Sequence record: NC_049853.1
DNA from: Escherichia phage Henu8
Strand: one strand, 5' to 3'
Length of the DNA stretch: 49,890 nt
This document shows positions 26,964-32,294 of this stretch, piece by piece (within the stretch, counting starts at the first letter, position 1; each line of letters opens with the position of its first letter). A program made the position numbers and the translations under genes. The notes beneath the pieces were generated by a model that was not told where the DNA came from, did no database searches, and was given only the letters and a program-made list of their open reading frames with translations.

Positions 26964-29900
26964 ATGGCTGAAAATATGATAACGGGAAGTAAGGGTGGAT
27001 CATCAAAACCTTATGTTCCGAAAGAGATGGAAGATAACCTGATCTCAATCAACAAAATCAAAATCCTTCTTGCCGTTTCCGATGGCGAGTGCGATCCAGA
27101 TTTTACACTTCGCGATCTGTATCTTGATGATGTTCCGGTAATTGCAGACGACGGAACTGTTAACTACCAGGGTGTGAAAGCTGAATTTCGACCTGGAACG
27201 CAGACGCAAGATTACATCCAGGGGTTTACTGACACATCAAGCGAAGTGACGCTGGCGCGTGACATTACGACGACAAATCCTTATGTAATTTCTGTAACCA
27301 ACAAAACATTATCGGCTATCAGAATAAAAATGCTAATGCCAACAGGCATTAAGCAAGAGGATAACGGCGATCTTGTGGGTGTTAAGGTCACTTATGCTGT
27401 TGATATGGCTGTTGACGGAGACTCTTACAAAGAAGTATTGCGAGACACCATCGAAGGTAAAACACGTTCAGGTTACGACAGAAGCCGAAGGATTGACCTT
27501 CCGGCATTTAATGATCGCGTATTGCTTAGGGTTAGAAGGGTTACGGCAGACAGCGCATCATCTCGCGTTACTGATTTGATTAAGCTACAAAGTTACGCTG
27601 AGGTTATTGATGCAAAATTCCGTTATCCTCTGACTGGTCTTGTTTACGTTGAATTTGACAGCGAATTGTTCCCAAACCAGATCCCTAACATTTCAATAAA
27701 GAAGAAATGGAAGCTGATTAATGTACCAAGCAACTATGACCCTGTATCTAGAGAGTATAGAGGTTCATGGGATGGAACGTTCAAGAAAGCGTGGTCGAAT
27801 AATCCGGCGTGGGTGCTTTATGACATTATCACAAACCAGCGATATGGATTAGATCAGCGAGAACTTGGTGTACAGGTTGATAAATGGAGTCTTTACGAGG
27901 CGGCGCAATACTGCGATCAGAAAGTTCCTGACGGGAAAGGCGGTACAGAGCCGCGTTATCTATGCGACGTTGTGATTCAAAGCCAGATTGAGGCTTATCA
28001 GCTTATTCGTGATATTTGCTCAATCTTCAGAGGCATGAGCTTTTGGAATGGAGAGAGCTTGTCAATCGTCATTGATAAGCCGCGCGATCCGTCGTACATC
28101 TTCACAAATGACAATGTTGTTGATGGTGATTTTCAGTACACAACAGCAAGTGAAAAGAGCATGTACACGCAGTGCAACGTGACGTTCGATGACGAACAAA
28201 ACATGTATCAGCAGGACGTAGAGGGCGTATTCGACACAGAGGCCGCATTGCGATTTGGATACAATCCTACAAGCATAACCGCGATCGGATGCACACGCAG
28301 GAGTGAGGCTAATCGGCGCGGTCGATGGATACTAAAAACCAACTTGCGCAGCACTACGGTAAACTTTGCTACTGGACTGGAAGGCATGATCCCATCAATA
28401 GGTGATGTGATTGCTATTGCTGACAATTTTCACAGCAGCAACCTTAAATTAAACCTATCAGGGCGCGTGATGGAAGTTTCCGGCTTGCAGGTGTTCGTTC
28501 CATTTAAGATTGACGCGCGACCAGGTGATTTCATTATCATCAACAAGCCGGACGGAAAGCCAGTTAAGCGCACAATCTCAAAAGTAAGCGGCGACGGAAA
28601 AACCATTGAACTAAACATTGGGTTTGGGTTTGAAGTTAAACCGGATACAGTTTTTGCAATCGACCGCACTGATATTGCATTGCAGCAATACGTTGTAACG
28701 AGTATCGGCAAAGGTGATGATGATGATGAATTTACATACTCCATCACGGCTGTTGAATATGACCAGAACAAATACGACGAGATTGATTACGGAGTAAACA
28801 TTGACGACAGGCCAACTTCAGTTGTCCAGCCTGACACAATGGCAGCACCGGAAAACGTGCAAATATCCTCATACTCGCGAATTGTCCAGGGTGCAAGCGT
28901 TGAAACAATGGTTGTGTCGTGGGATAAAGTACCTTACGCATCGCTGTATGAAATGCAATGGCGAAAAGGTGATGGCAACTGGCTGAATACACCACAGACC
29001 GCAAACAAAGAAATTGAGGTTGAAGGTATTTATTCAGGAAACTACCAGGTAAGGGTTAGATCTGTTTCCGCTTCAGGTTCTACTTCTCCGTGGTCCAGAA
29101 TTGTGACAGCATCACTGACTGGTAAGGTAGGAGAGCCAGGCGCGCCAGTTAACTTAACAGCATCCGACAATGAAGTGTTTGGCATTCGTGTTAAGTGGGG
29201 GATGCCAGAGGGGAGCGGGGACACGGCATACATTGAGCTTCATCAGTCGCCGGATGGAACGGCTGAAAACTCAAGCCTGCTAACGCTGATCCCGTATCCA
29301 CAATATGAATACTGGCACGGTACGCTTCCGGCTGGTCATGTTGTCTGGTATAGAATCCGCAGCGTTGACAGAATAGGCAACGTTTCCGGCTGGACTGATT
29401 TTGTTAGAGGCATGGCTTCAGATGATGTTGAGGCTGTTTTAGGAGATATTCTTGATAAGATTTTTGATACTGAAGCAGGTCAGGATCTTAAAGAGAACGC
29501 CATTGACAGTGCAAACAAGATAAAGGACCAGGCTCAAGCAATCATCCAGAATGCTCTTGCTAATGATGCTGATATTAAGTGGACGCGAGTACAAAATGGA
29601 AAGAGAAAGGCTGAATATGGTCACGCTCTTGAACTTATAGCCACAGAGACTGAGGCACGAGTTACGCAGATTGAAGAGTTGAGGGCGTCAATCGACGAGG
29701 ATATTGTTTCAAGCATAAAGACAGTGCAGGAGGCTATAGCCACAGAATCTGAAACGCGATCAACTCAAATAAATGCTTTGGATTCAAAATTCACAACTGA
29801 AATTGACGGTGTAAAACGCGATACAGCCGCAAGCATTAATCAGGTGAATCAAACCATTGCCAATGAGTCAGAATCGCGCGCGCAGGCCGTTAACGCGCTT

Positions 29901-30542
29901 GATGCGAAGTTCACAAAGGAGATCGAAGATTTAAACGGAGTCATTAAGACTGAGGTTGAGGCTAACATCTCTGAAGTGAAACAGGCTATCGCTAACGAGA
30001 CAGAAGCAAGGGTGCAGGCTGACCAGGCGTTAACAGCTAAATTTGGAGACGTTGAATCTGCATTATCTCAAAAACTTGATTCGTGGGCTGGCGTGTCGTC
30101 TGTTGGTGCTAAATACTCAATGAAATTGGGGTTAACATACAACGGTCAACAGTACAGCGCGGGGATGGTGATGCAGCTTTCGCAGAGTTCATCCGGCCTT
30201 ATTTCGCAAATTTTGTTTGATGCGAACAGGTTCGCCATCATGACAAGTTCGACTGGCGGGGTGTATACGCTGCCTTTCGTGGTGGAAAATAACCAGGTAT
30301 TCATTAACAGCCTGTTAGTTAAAAACGGTTCAATTACAAATGCTATGATCGGTAATTATATTCAGTCGAATAACTTTGTTGCCAATCAGCAGGGTTGGAG
30401 GCTGGATAAAAACGGCAGATTTGAGAACTACGGTTCTACATCTGGAGAAGGGGCCATGAAGTTGACAAACGAAACGATAAGTGTACGAGACGCAAACGGG
30501 CGCTTGCGTGTTCAGATTGGTAGGCTTACTGGTACTTGGTAA
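26964..30542 (+). CDS. tail tip / host specificity protein (lambda J-like)
   Basis: 1192 aa, last and largest tail gene; fibronectin-III-like middle region; C-terminal ~35-aa coiled-coil repeats (...TE.R.TQI..L...I... IA.ESE.R...). Confidence 0.8.
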   Translation: MAENMITGSKGGSSKPYVPKEMEDNLISINKIKILLAVSDGECDPDFTLRDLYLDDVPVIADDGTVNYQGVKAEFRPGTQTQDYIQGFTDTSSEVTLARDITTTNPYVISVTNKTLSAIRIKMLMPTGIKQEDNGDLVGVKVTYAVDMAVDGDSYKEVLRDTIEGKTRSGYDRSRRIDLPAFNDRVLLRVRRVTADSASSRVTDLIKLQSYAEVIDAKFRYPLTGLVYVEFDSELFPNQIPNISIKKKWKLINVPSNYDPVSREYRGSWDGTFKKAWSNNPAWVLYDIITNQRYGLDQRELGVQVDKWSLYEAAQYCDQKVPDGKGGTEPRYLCDVVIQSQIEAYQLIRDICSIFRGMSFWNGESLSIVIDKPRDPSYIFTNDNVVDGDFQYTTASEKSMYTQCNVTFDDEQNMYQQDVEGVFDTEAALRFGYNPTSITAIGCTRRSEANRRGRWILKTNLRSTTVNFATGLEGMIPSIGDVIAIADNFHSSNLKLNLSGRVMEVSGLQVFVPFKIDARPGDFIIINKPDGKPVKRTISKVSGDGKTIELNIGFGFEVKPDTVFAIDRTDIALQQYVVTSIGKGDDDDEFTYSITAVEYDQNKYDEIDYGVNIDDRPTSVVQPDTMAAPENVQISSYSRIVQGASVETMVVSWDKVPYASLYEMQWRKGDGNWLNTPQTANKEIEVEGIYSGNYQVRVRSVSASGSTSPWSRIVTASLTGKVGEPGAPVNLTASDNEVFGIRVKWGMPEGSGDTAYIELHQSPDGTAENSSLLTLIPYPQYEYWHGTLPAGHVVWYRIRSVDRIGNVSGWTDFVRGMASDDVEAVLGDILDKIFDTEAGQDLKENAIDSANKIKDQAQAIIQNALANDADIKWTRVQNGKRKAEYGHALELIATETEARVTQIEELRASIDEDIVSSIKTVQEAIATESETRSTQINALDSKFTTEIDGVKRDTAASINQVNQTIANESESRAQAVNALDAKFTKEIEDLNGVIKTEVEANISEVKQAIANETEARVQADQALTAKFGDVESALSQKLDSWAGVSSVGAKYSMKLGLTYNGQQYSAGMVMQLSQSSSGLISQILFDANRFAIMTSSTGGVYTLPFVVENNQVFINSLLVKNGSITNAMIGNYIQSNNFVANQQGWRLDKNGRFENYGSTSGEGAMKLTNETISVRDANGRLRVQIGRLTGTW

Positions 30543-30585
30543 AATCAAAGCGGGGCATTTGCCCCGCATTTATGGAGGTTTAATA

Positions 30586-30891
30586 ATGGCTGAATATGGT
30601 GTTTCAACGTGGGATGCTAACGGGAAGTATAACAACTACGGAATCAAGCCAGTTTCCGTTGTTGGTGTCATTAGCCTTGCCGCTGGTCAGACAAGCGGAT
30701 CGTGGAGCTTTAGCATTCCAAGTGGTTTTAAGGTTGGGTATGTTGTTTCACTTGATGAAGGTGCCAGGGGAGTTGGAAGGGAAATAGTAGCATCTGGAAA
30801 TACAATAAGAATTAATCCTACATCGTCAATTGGTGCAAATAGGTATTCTTCTTCAAAGTGCGAGTTAGTTGTTTTTCTTGAGAGGGTTTAA
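30586..30891 (+). CDS. hypothetical tail-associated protein, MAEYG paralogue 1 (101 aa)
   Basis: Trimmed to ATG 30586 (GGAGG SD); N-terminus MAEYGVSTWDANGK. Confidence 0.5.
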   Translation: MAEYGVSTWDANGKYNNYGIKPVSVVGVISLAAGQTSGSWSFSIPSGFKVGYVVSLDEGARGVGREIVASGNTIRINPTSSIGANRYSSSKCELVVFLERV

Positions 30892-30892
30892 A

Positions 30893-31534
30893 ATGGCTGA
30901 GTATGGAGCAATGTTATCTTTATCAAATGGGAATCCATTTGTCACACCAAAATCAACGCCATTTTGCTTATATGGCAAGTACACTTATTCATCTTCAGGT
31001 ACTTCTGCCTATCATAGTGCAAGCGCAAATATACCAGTAAACCAATCTTATCCATGCATGGCATTTATAAAAACAACAAACACACAGCAGCCAACTGCAT
31101 TAATAGCTTACAGGAATGGTGGCAACATTTATGTAAACGGAGGCAATCCATACGGGCAATCATTTACAATGACTGTTTATATATTTGCCATATTCCCTCA
31201 AACTCTACCCAAATATGGTATGGCTATATGGGATGCAAGCGGAAAGTTGGTTTTAACTAATGAAAGCAGGGTGCTAACAGATCTTGTTACAATTGGTACT
31301 CCTGGTTCTTCAGGTGGAACGAATATAGATCAAACGTTATCTGGTTCTTATGCCGTTTGCCCTTCAAGGCTTGGTGCGGTTATAGGTATGGGCGCTTCTG
31401 ACATATATACATCATGCAGGTATAATGGTTCAAGCACAAGGATCGGTGCAGCAAGGACAACGCCAGGAACAGGTTCTATAACAAATAACGGAAATTCAAT
31501 AATTGCAATAAAGACTGATATTTACGACCAATGA
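30893..31534 (+). CDS. hypothetical tail-associated protein, MAEYG paralogue 2 (213 aa)
   Basis: Trimmed to ATG 30893; N-terminus MAEYGAML and internal KYGMAIWDASGK repeat matching paralogue 1; Ser/Gly/Thr/Asn-rich. Confidence 0.5.
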   Translation: MAEYGAMLSLSNGNPFVTPKSTPFCLYGKYTYSSSGTSAYHSASANIPVNQSYPCMAFIKTTNTQQPTALIAYRNGGNIYVNGGNPYGQSFTMTVYIFAIFPQTLPKYGMAIWDASGKLVLTNESRVLTDLVTIGTPGSSGGTNIDQTLSGSYAVCPSRLGAVIGMGASDIYTSCRYNGSSTRIGAARTTPGTGSITNNGNSIIAIKTDIYDQ

Positions 31535-31566
31535 AAAAAGGGGCTTTCGCCCCTTTGTTTTTATTT
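31534..31566. terminator. bidirectional rho-independent terminator between convergent genes
   Basis: A-run, GGGGC-TTTC-GCCCC hairpin, T-run. Confidence 0.65.
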
Positions 31567-31792
31567 ACAGACTGCAATCAGCGTTTTTAAAGTTATCAAT
31601 ACTTACCCACTGAAAATTAAACGGATAGCCAGCCTTAACAAGAGTGCGTTCGCCAACTCGCTTTACTCCAAAAATAGCAACTGAATACTGCATACCGCTA
31701 TTTTCATAAATAGCCGTGCATTCACGCTTAGGCATATTTGCACATCCAGTCAGGGCAATGGCTGCAATCAAAACGGCGATTAACTTTTTCAT
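31565..31792 (-). CDS. cor: Cor-like superinfection-exclusion lipoprotein
   Basis: 75 aa; MKKLIAVLIAAIALTGC signal peptide plus lipobox; GAAGGAG SD; convergent with tail genes and driven by its own promoter. Confidence 0.55.
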   Translation of the reverse strand: MKKLIAVLIAAIALTGCANMPKRECTAIYENSGMQYSVAIFGVKRVGERTLVKAGYPFNFQWVSIDNFKNADCSL

Positions 31793-31823
31793 CTTGGTAT
31801 CTCCTTCGTTGTTGTTGGTTGCA

Positions 31824-31867
31824 ACTATACACGATCTTGCGATTGGCGTTTAGCAAAAAGTGCTATT
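31824..31867 (-). promoter_or_regulatory. conserved phage promoter motif (variant) + -10 (TATAGT) for the cor-like gene
   Basis: Minus-strand AATAGCACTTTTTGCTAAAC, 18-nt spacer, TATAGT. Confidence 0.5.
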
Positions 31868-31920
31868 CTTGTTCTTTTTGTTATCCTGTGTTCTCAAATC
31901 TGCGGAGTCTTAAATTTAGC

Positions 31921-32150
31921 TCAAAAAGTGAACAACAATAGAGCGCAATGCATACAGATAAATATATATACATACATATAAATCAATAAGTTAGTAGTAT
32001 ATATATTCATGTTTGTTCTTTATTGTTATCTATGTTTTGTGTGATTTTGTGTGTCTGGTGATTTTTCTGTGATTATGCATGTGTCAGTGGTTATGTGTGT
32101 CTATATATCTATATCCGGCGCAAATGGAGGAACAAGAGAACAAAAATACA
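31921..32150. repeat. TA/TG-rich element, copy B (homologous to 2248-2470)
   Basis: Same shared blocks as copy A (AAATCAATAAGTTAG, ATATATATAC, GGTGATTTTT, GTGAT units); in a ~500-bp region without an ORF. Confidence 0.55.
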
Positions 32151-32237
32151 ACAAAGGTATTTATCAATCACTTACATGTGAATTTTGTTATCCAATTCTC
32201 CTAGAACGTTGTTAGAACAGAAAAAACAAAATAACCA

Positions 32238-32265
32238 TTGACTAAACGCATTAAATAGCTAAAAT
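32238..32265 (+). promoter_or_regulatory. sigma70-like promoter (TTGACT-16-TAAAAT)
   Basis: TTGACT 32238-32243, TAAAAT 32260-32265, upstream of the exonuclease gene. Confidence 0.5.
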
Positions 32266-32294
32266 GCAGGCATACCAACCAACGAGGGAAAATC

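Follow-up and report, generated by a model that had tools for sequence, protein, structure and literature searches.

A probable FhuA-type receptor-recognition cassette downstream of the J-like tail fibre gene of Escherichia phage Henu8

Escherichia phage Henu8, a T1-like coliphage, belongs to the genus Hanrivervirus, and in its DNA (NC_049853.1, a stretch of 49,890 nucleotides referred to here as the window) two short genes lie directly downstream of the homologue of gpJ, the central tail fibre protein. These two genes, called gene 1 and gene 2, together with the convergent gene cor that follows them, probably represent the FhuA-type allele of an exchangeable receptor-recognition cassette, a reading to which a probability of roughly 0.7 is given. 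Within this cassette gene 2 would encode the receptor-binding protein (RBP) and gene 1 a partner protein at the tail tip, with short hairpins in both proteins docking on J. A locus of this kind and its role in receptor use are already known from the literature, and since the Henu8 copy is also essentially identical to those of published phages, the novelty of the locus itself is low.

How would such a cassette operate? The product of gene 2 would be a monomeric RBP made of two beta-sandwich domains, in which the loops at one end, the 'tip', bind FhuA whilst the other end, the 'base', anchors it to the C-terminus of the trimeric J fibre. Gene 1 would provide a second small beta-sandwich virion protein, which would be made in step with gene 2, the two genes being separated by 1 nucleotide, and which would belong to the same tail-tip assembly. 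The block YG-h-x-h-W-D-A-x-G-K would be a beta-hairpin that opens each module, and the three hairpins, one from gene 1 and two from gene 2, most likely make up the docking base for J, with gene 1 supplying the third in trans. Such a docking function would lead the hairpins to be conserved while the remainder of the proteins diverges with receptor specificity. After infection, Cor would block FhuA from the periplasmic side. Underlying this scheme we infer a direct contact between gene 2 and FhuA, a complex of gene 1, gene 2 and J, and a docking role for the hairpins.

One line of evidence for this interpretation is the comparison with KarlJaspers (Bas06), a phage of the same genus that is a BtuB user according to a 2026 preprint (10.64898/2026.04.02.716166). 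The two genomes are 94.2% identical by blastn up to position 30556 and 95.3% identical from 31742 onwards, and the block in between, with both genes and the part of cor that encodes the mature lipoprotein, differs (Table 1). In its place KarlJaspers has a cassette that is inverted relative to J and consists of bas06_0025 (91 aa; phrog_557, E 5e-22), bas06_0024 (204 aa; phrog_425, E 1.5e-44) and bas06_0026, a Cor-like lipoprotein (E 4e-11). A preliminary description of this DNA had proposed that the region is exchanged horizontally as a module, and the presence of a different allele between flanks of 94-95% identity bears this out. J, on the other hand, retains 89-97% identity in KarlJaspers to its very end and therefore cannot explain the difference in receptor, so that on these sequence comparisons the cassette, rather than J, would carry the receptor specificity.

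This is relevant to the alternative that J is the true FhuA binder, with genes 1 and 2 as assembly or accessory factors of the tail tip (chaperones or stabilisers) that make no contact with the receptor. J ends in PF09327, a domain family that binds LamB in lambda, k-mers predictive of FhuA use are also found in the C-terminal tip of J (bioRxiv 2026, 10.64898/2026.04.02.716166), and J was analysed as the RBP of phage JLBYU41 by Lewis et al. 2023 (PMC10373560). This explanation is nevertheless considered quite unlikely, as it has to accommodate a J with 89-97% identity in a BtuB-dependent phage with a different cassette, a gene 2 fold like that of a protein whose structure was solved with the receptor bound, and homologues of both proteins that remain in mature virions.

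The end of J does appear to matter to the cassette in another way. In pSf-1, a Hanrivervirus with a single-chain LptD-type RBP, identity to Henu8 resumes at 31740 whereas the left break lies at 29567, inside J, so that the end of J has been exchanged together with the LptD-type RBP. The last 100 residues of J (30240-30542) are 89% identical in KarlJaspers, 83% in vB_EcoS-95, 70% in T1, 60% in phi80 and 51% in pSf-1, and in phi80 this 60% compares with 37-45% further up the protein. The extreme C-terminus is better kept than the rest of J among phages with split cassettes, whatever their receptor, and the last ~100 residues are presumed to be the docking site for the cassette proteins. In the published T1 map, J residues 821-1172 are missing. 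The J C-terminus also contains hairpin-like strings that resemble the motif, GWRLDKNGRF and ISVRDANGRLRV, which are not significant when scored with the motif hidden Markov model (HMM) described below. At the opposite end of the exchanged block, the right junction at 31740-31742 falls within the part of cor that encodes the signal peptide and lipobox in both the KarlJaspers and pSf-1 comparisons. The three otherwise different lipoproteins share MKKLIAVLIAA(I/V)ALTGC, and this conserved signal peptide may be a site of recombination.

The position of the two genes had been taken, in the earlier description, as one where receptor-binding or host-range proteins are usually found, and this agrees with the literature, in which the region downstream of gpJ is the 'bona fide RBP locus' (PMC8594841; 10.64898/2026.04.02.716166). 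Alleles of this locus match the receptor that is used, whether FhuA, BtuB, YncD or LptD (Maffei et al. 2021, PMC8594841; bioRxiv 10.64898/2026.04.02.716166), and the correlation between locus and receptor class holds in the BASEL and 255-phage screens reported in those two studies. The FhuA users T1, phi80, N15, HK022 and ES18 have the cassette in common, according to a passage of PMC13164509 that cites Wietzorrek et al. 2006. The FhuA dependence of Henu8 is presumed by proxy, through JLBYU41, which is FhuA-dependent by experiment (PMC10373560), and JLBYU09. Both are 97.1% identical to Henu8 over 30400-31900, and the gene 2 protein of JLBYU09 is 100% identical to that of Henu8. Identity over the same interval is 95-96% to aaroes, grams and damhaus, and near-identical copies of the cassette are present in JLBYU09 and JLBYU41, aaroes, grams and other Hanriverviruses.

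The cassette is also recognisable from its gene families, with a PHROG 557 gene followed at once by a PHROG 425 gene and with cor adjacent. The order of J, a small gene, a larger gene and cor recurs in T1 (ST33-32-31-30), phi80 (21-24), PaulFeyerabend and the HK/mEp lambdoid phages, and the pair lies between J and cor in T1, phi80, N15/HK022-like prophages and the Dhillonviruses, all of them FhuA users. Relatives of gene 2 occur in 348 phage records, which include T1, phi80, many HK/mEp lambdoid phages, Dhillonviruses and Klebsiella Weberviruses. Among the IMG/VR loci with a gene 2 relative, a relative of gene 1 immediately precedes it on the same strand in every case (80/80) and cor is present in all but one (79/80). 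At the protein level gene 2 is 56% identical to T1 ST31 (tblastn) and 61% identical to its phi80 homologue PHI80_23. Neither gene 1 nor gene 2 belongs to a Pfam or NCBIfam family, and a sequence search of the PDB returned no relatives of the proteins.

Members of the gene 1 family always stand alone as proteins of about 100 residues, and the few long matches are to repetitive giant proteins (P0298, P0308, P0317, P0323 and others). These are up to 4211 residues long and are matched by the gene 1 profile in up to 19 stretches with E-values of 1e-14 to 1e-4, which points either to repeats of a comparable small beta sandwich within large surface proteins or to an effect of composition. In one further sequence of 139 residues, P0103, a PF09327 J-end is followed by the N-terminal 44 residues of a gene 1 relative; this is probably the product of a frameshift or of wrong gene calling where J meets gene 1, and not a natural fusion.

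What do the encoded proteins look like? AlphaFold2 (AF2) models were built with family alignments. The model of gene 2 has a mean predicted local distance difference test score (pLDDT) of 92.8 and consists of two all-beta domains (residues 25-99 and 131-207) with a hairpin at 111-122, confidence being lower over the N-terminal 20 residues. This model matches the fold of a solved LptD-type RBP (9RPT chain C), and weak agreement is also seen at the sequence level, where gene 2 scores against phrog_1265, the family of the Rtp44/LptD RBPs, with an hmmscan E-value of 1.6e-5. Gene 1 is modelled (pLDDT 88) as a six-stranded sandwich over residues 24-100, preceded by 20 N-terminal residues with a pLDDT of 61-73, and a Foldseek search of BFVD with this model gave weak matches to small phage beta proteins only. 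An H-type lectin fold, a six-stranded sandwich like those of HPA and SLL-2 with residues for sugar binding, is no more than a possibility for the cassette proteins.

That the two proteins form part of the particle is indicated by mass spectrometry of virions of vB_EcoS-95, a Warwickvirus, in which 'unknown' proteins _0084 (22.0 kDa) and _0085 (10.0 kDa, 55% coverage) were found beside the 132-kDa J (PMC6340994). The open reading frames (ORFs) after J in this phage encode a 204-residue protein of 22.0 kDa, named 'membrane associated protein', and a 92-residue protein of 10.0 kDa, named 'outer membrane protein', the latter starting MAEYGYAIYDEQGR, and the lipoprotein there has a mass of 10.4 kDa. 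The measured masses match the phrog_425-type and phrog_557-type ORFs adjoining J, and the 204- and 92-residue proteins are 63% and 73% identical to bas06_0024 and bas06_0025, respectively. By analogy with these homologues, both proteins of the Henu8 cassette are presumed to be virion components.

The database names, 'outer membrane protein' for gene 1 and 'membrane associated protein' for gene 2, are wrong. These PHROG and RefSeq names, along with the constant linkage to cor, would fit a reading in which the two gene products sit in the host membrane and contribute, together with Cor, to superinfection exclusion (Sie), and a Sie-related role has been proposed, in PMC13164509, where structural matches were lacking. 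However, the gene 1 and gene 2 proteins have no signal peptide, lipobox, transmembrane or hydrophobic segment (maximum 19-residue Kyte-Doolittle means of 0.93-1.05, compared with 1.71 for the signal peptide of Cor). They are confidently modelled as soluble all-beta proteins, one of which matches the fold of a solved RBP, and their homologues are detected in purified virions. Moreover, they are transcribed with the late tail genes, convergently to cor and with a bidirectional terminator in between, and loci of the LptD type consist of the RBP and the lipoprotein only. A membrane or exclusion role is thus held to be extremely improbable.

Modelling by others bears on the arrangement of the two proteins at the tail end. 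In 2025 the ~11-kDa and ~21-kDa ORFs that follow the spike gene were proposed as undetected tail-end receptor-binding proteins, and AlphaFold2-Multimer predicted, for JLBYU60, that a gene 2-like monomer touches all three spike chains (PMC12309495). In the same work, Matusiak et al. 2025 raised the possibility that gene 1 alone forms a homotrimeric immunoglobulin-like cap, equivalent to the receptor-binding domain at the C-terminus of lambda J, as an alternative tail tip that would give two virion sub-populations or the use of a second receptor. A stable complex of the spike with such a trimer was obtained for JLBYU60 with AlphaFold2-Multimer (PMC12309495), gene 1 is indeed a small beta sandwich, and its homologue is present in virions. 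Yet in the multimer models it was always the gene 2-like protein that was favoured at the end of the spike (PMC12309495), gene 1 was never found without gene 2 in the IMG/VR loci, and the 314 residues of the whole cassette match the length of the single-chain RBPs (311-321 residues), all of which makes a separate gene 1 cap unlikely.

The feature that ties the two genes together is a short motif. The coordinates given in the preliminary description are exact. Both proteins start with MAEYG, and the gene 1 block EYGVSTWDANGK recurs inside gene 2 as KYGMAIWDASGK, just as that description had noticed; 7 of the 12 residues are identical. BLASTP of gene 1 against gene 2 aligns 14 residues (E 6e-4 as a single comparison) and nothing else, and at the DNA level the stretches that encode copies 1 and 3 of the motif are 75% identical over 36 nucleotides, with the start regions of the two genes 84% identical over 25 nucleotides. 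The block is kept in both families. When 93 relatives of gene 1 were compared with 95 of gene 2 by profile-profile alignment (hhalign), 18 columns aligned (E 5.5e-5). When the halves of gene 2 are taken separately, the gene 1 family aligns with the C-terminal half over 12 columns (E 2.3e-5) and with the N-terminal half over 15 columns (E 1e-3), and hhalign finds no significant match between the two halves themselves. An HMM built from gene 1 N-termini only, run against all 886 six-frame ORFs of the window, picks the internal site of gene 2 as the best non-self match (E 0.016, the next being 2.7), and the reverse search gives E 0.052 with a next best of 1.1. The sharing of the motif is above chance, yet limited to a short block. 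In the AF2 model of gene 2, strands 111-113 and 119-122 lie at copy 3. Residues G5, D10 and G13 of gene 1 are invariant across the FhuA, BtuB and YncD alleles, and G5, G13 and G117 of gene 2 are invariant across receptor classes.

The same description had gone further and read gene 2 as a second copy of gene 1 with an N-terminal domain fused to it, and here the result is different: the similarity ends after 12-18 residues in both BLASTP and profile-profile alignments, and neither method aligns the C-terminal half of gene 2 with any part of gene 1 beyond the hairpin. The predicted strands of gene 1 (24-31, 38-41, 48-55, 65-70, 73-78 and 92-100), when set against those of the N-terminal domain of gene 2 (25-33, 41-48, 55-62, 69-75, 78-85 and 92-99), form a pattern that in the models looks more like this domain than the C-terminal one. 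A duplication of the whole domain is rejected on the grounds that only the motif aligns, and the recurring unit is the hairpin motif that opens each module, of which there are three copies per cassette. The common MAEYG start, the common 12-residue block and the short DNA stretches of 75-84% identity are what a recent tandem duplication, with the C-terminal half of gene 2 as a full second copy of gene 1, would account for. Such an event is very improbable given where the alignments end and given that the strand pattern of the gene 2 C-terminal domain is unlike that of gene 1. Furthermore, the two-gene arrangement and the motif are old, being common to T1, phi80, the Klebsiella Weberviruses and the BtuB and YncD alleles.

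Three copies of the motif per cassette are found in the FhuA, BtuB, YncD and LptD types. In the FhuA type (Henu8, T1, phi80, PaulFeyerabend and Klebsiella phage Call) they lie at the N-terminus of gene 1, at the N-terminus of gene 2 and in the middle of gene 2. The BtuB type, bas06_0025 / bas06_0024, has MAYGYAIYDEQGR, MYGMQITKPDGS and HGIAFYNSAGQ, and the YncD type, bas10_0026 / bas10_0025, has MPGLQAWDASGN, SGFEVRNNAGV and SGYLDVFDASGN. The LptD type is a single chain, represented by Rtp44, pSf-1 gp83 and the Oekolampad RBP, and in Rtp44 the three copies are MAQGIYIDLNDGR, GQGIYVADSTDF and GPGINIFNSNNQ. The summed lengths of the split cassettes are 314, 295 and 318 residues, and the motif glycines are among the very few columns that do not vary between receptor classes. 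The copies in the Oekolampad RBP occupy residues 2-14, 121-132 and 214-228, and thus fall in segments 1-25, 113-142 and 206-234, which are missing from the cryo-electron microscopy model and were rebuilt by the authors (PMC12685063). The N-terminus and conserved residues of an LptD-type RBP are located at the 'base', opposite the receptor-binding loops, and a role in tail attachment has been proposed for them (Black et al., PMC13035648). One tentative extension, judged possible but somewhat short of an even chance, is that the LptD-type single-chain RBP has its counterpart here in split form, as gene 1 plus gene 2, with the three hairpins of each cassette forming a socket of pseudo-threefold symmetry for the trimeric J end, and thereby a universal adaptor for FhuA, BtuB, YncD and LptD binders.

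A number of points weigh against these interpretations, in addition to the treatment of J as the RBP of JLBYU41 mentioned above. In the literature searched, no experiment was found that shows FhuA binding by gene 2 or by any other member of PHROG 425, and the support for direct binding of FhuA by proteins of the gene 2 type consists of AlphaFold models made by others. The virion data concern a BtuB-type allele in another genus, with 2-3 peptides per protein. With respect to a split single-chain RBP, a search of 1.84 billion representatives gave no protein in which the two are fused, the LptD-type RBP has been described as two, not three, sandwiches (Black et al., PMC13035648), and module-level hhalign of gene 1 against the thirds of Rtp44 gives E-values of 0.005-0.05, no better than reversed-sequence controls. 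Such scores likewise do not exceed the controls where descent of the modules behind the hairpin from one repeated domain is concerned. Because the D/N-x-N-G hairpin is a common turn motif, part of the resemblance across classes is possibly convergent.

Table 1 Features of the receptor-recognition locus of Henu8 (positions in the window; E, E-value)
Feature	Position	Strand	Evidence
J-like central tail fibre / tail tip protein, 1192 aa	26964..30542	+	phrog_31 E 0; PF09327 1.9e-40, PF24801, PF13550
G+C-rich hairpin between J and gene 1	30550..30567		7-bp all-GC stem
Block differing from BtuB-using congener KarlJaspers (gene 1, gene 2, mature part of cor)	30557..31741		blastn
Gene 1, 101 aa, PHROG 557	30586..30891	+	phrog_557 E 1.6e-29, full length
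Hairpin motif copy 1, EYGVSTWDANGK, gene 1 residues 3-14	30592..30627	+	BLASTP, hhalign, motif HMM, DNA comparison
Gene 2, 213 aa, PHROG 425	30893..31534	+	phrog_425 E 7.7e-69, full length
Hairpin motif copy 2, degenerate, EYGAMLSLSNGNP, gene 2 residues 3-15	30899..30937	+	hhalign, pLDDT 70-77
Hairpin motif copy 3, KYGMAIWDASGK, gene 2 residues 107-118, start of second domain	31211..31246	+	BLASTP, hhalign, motif HMM, DNA comparison
Bidirectional intrinsic terminator between convergent gene 2 and cor	31537..31556		8-bp stem, T-run on both strands
cor, superinfection-exclusion lipoprotein blocking FhuA, 75 aa	31565..31792	-	phrog_1119 1.9e-28; NCBIfam NF047972 'phage exclusion lipoprotein Cor'

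The base composition of the locus is in keeping with its exchange. The genes had been described as more AT-rich than the surrounding tail genes, and windowed calculation gives 40.4% GC for the region against a window mean of 44.2% (standard deviation 1.85 for 949-nucleotide windows), which places it at the 5th percentile. Third codon positions behave likewise, with a GC fraction (GC3) of 0.32 in gene 1 and 0.27 in gene 2 compared with 0.44 in J and 0.50 in recE, a drop that is consistent with horizontal exchange as a module. GC content reaches its minimum for the entire window in a stretch that starts in the 3' half of gene 2, spans cor and continues into the intergenic region after it, the lowest 949-nucleotide windows starting at 31126-31501 and reaching to about 32450.

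Within the locus, the PF09327 tip domain covers residues 1034-1166, at the C-terminal end of J. Gene 1 starts with the ATG at 30586, with GGAGG located 7 nucleotides upstream, and ends with TAA at 30889-30891. The mechanical ORF extends upstream to a GTG at 30481, overlapping the end of J (30481-30585), but the conserved N-terminus of the family and the GGAGG identify the ATG as the true start. Gene 2 runs from the ATG at 30893 to a stop codon at 31532-31534. The T1 record has terminators annotated between ST33 and ST32, at the site equivalent to the hairpin at 30550-30567, and at the place that matches 31537..31556. Cor scores 70.5 bits with NF047972, for which the cut-off is 31, and has the lipobox LTGC. 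Beyond it, the intergenic region between cor and the recE-like gene (31793-32294) comprises ~500 nucleotides with 33% GC and contains a promoter-like site, TTGACT-16-TAAAAT, at 32238-32265, which faces the exonuclease gene.

In the Klebsiella phage vB_KpnS_Call (L004 2188-3160) the pair lies directly after J, gene 2 having 32% identity; no cor is annotated in the ~2.5 kb examined downstream, where a lateral tail fibre gene is found instead, and the receptor of the Klebsiella Weberviruses is not annotated as FhuA. Eighteen records named 'Campylobacter phage' (MG065636-MG065687, host Campylobacter jejuni) are 93-96% identical to Henu8 across the region from J to recE; this host label looks doubtful and the records may derive from contaminating coliphages.

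A cassette that decides which outer-membrane protein a T1-like phage uses provides a handle for predicting and re-engineering host range, as the literature already recognises. To this the present analysis adds that the FhuA and BtuB types are related through their PHROGs, and the FhuA and LptD types through their fold, where a recent preprint had called the FhuA, BtuB and LptD binders unrelated; that both proteins are, by homology, virion components with wrong database names; that a conserved hairpin, three per cassette, marks the probable attachment surface; and that the exact junctions of the swap lie at 30557 and 31741. Were the idea of a hairpin socket true, it would give a rule for where to cut when receptor specificity is moved between phages. 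The three-hairpin rule, the fold link between FhuA and LptD types and the small virion partner together sharpen a testable model of interchangeable binders on one tail tip.

Among known systems, T5 pb5/Llp likewise combines a monomeric FhuA-binding RBP, carried by a trimeric fibre, with a lipoprotein in the periplasm that blocks FhuA (PMC9586334), although pb5 is a single protein of 640 residues, unrelated in sequence, encoded at a different locus and without similarity in any search. The LptD-type RBPs (Rtp44, Oekolampad and PDB 9RPT; DUF6453, phrog_1265) are one polypeptide directed to a different receptor, where Henu8 has 101 + 213 residues, and the C-terminus of J is co-exchanged with the RBP, as in pSf-1; PF20051 (DUF6453) matches Rtp44 at 1.4e-113 but neither gene 1 nor gene 2 at E up to 10. 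The BtuB type (bas06_0025/0024/0026; vB_EcoS-95 gp84/83/85) has the same PHROGs 557/425, a Cor-like lipoprotein and a C-terminal 'AI...YD' end. Both this type and the YncD type (IsaakIselin bas10_0026/0025/0024) have the three hairpins and the small gene directly before the larger one, but their proteins are 20-25% identical to those of Henu8, the cassette is inverted relative to J and the receptors are others, and in the YncD type a signal-peptide protein replaces the Cor-like lipoprotein. The closest counterparts are the pairs of T1, N15, phi80 and HK022, which share the same PHROGs (557, 425 and 1119), the order after J and the sizes. T1 gp32 (ST32), N15 gp22 and phi80 gp22 are homologues of gene 1 (PHROG 557), and T1 gp31 (ST31), N15 gp23 and phi80 gp23 are homologues of gene 2 (PHROG 425). 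The cor gene is convergent in Henu8 and T1 and co-directional in the lambdoid prophages, and with terminators that also match those annotated in T1, nothing essential differs between the cassettes of T1 and Henu8.

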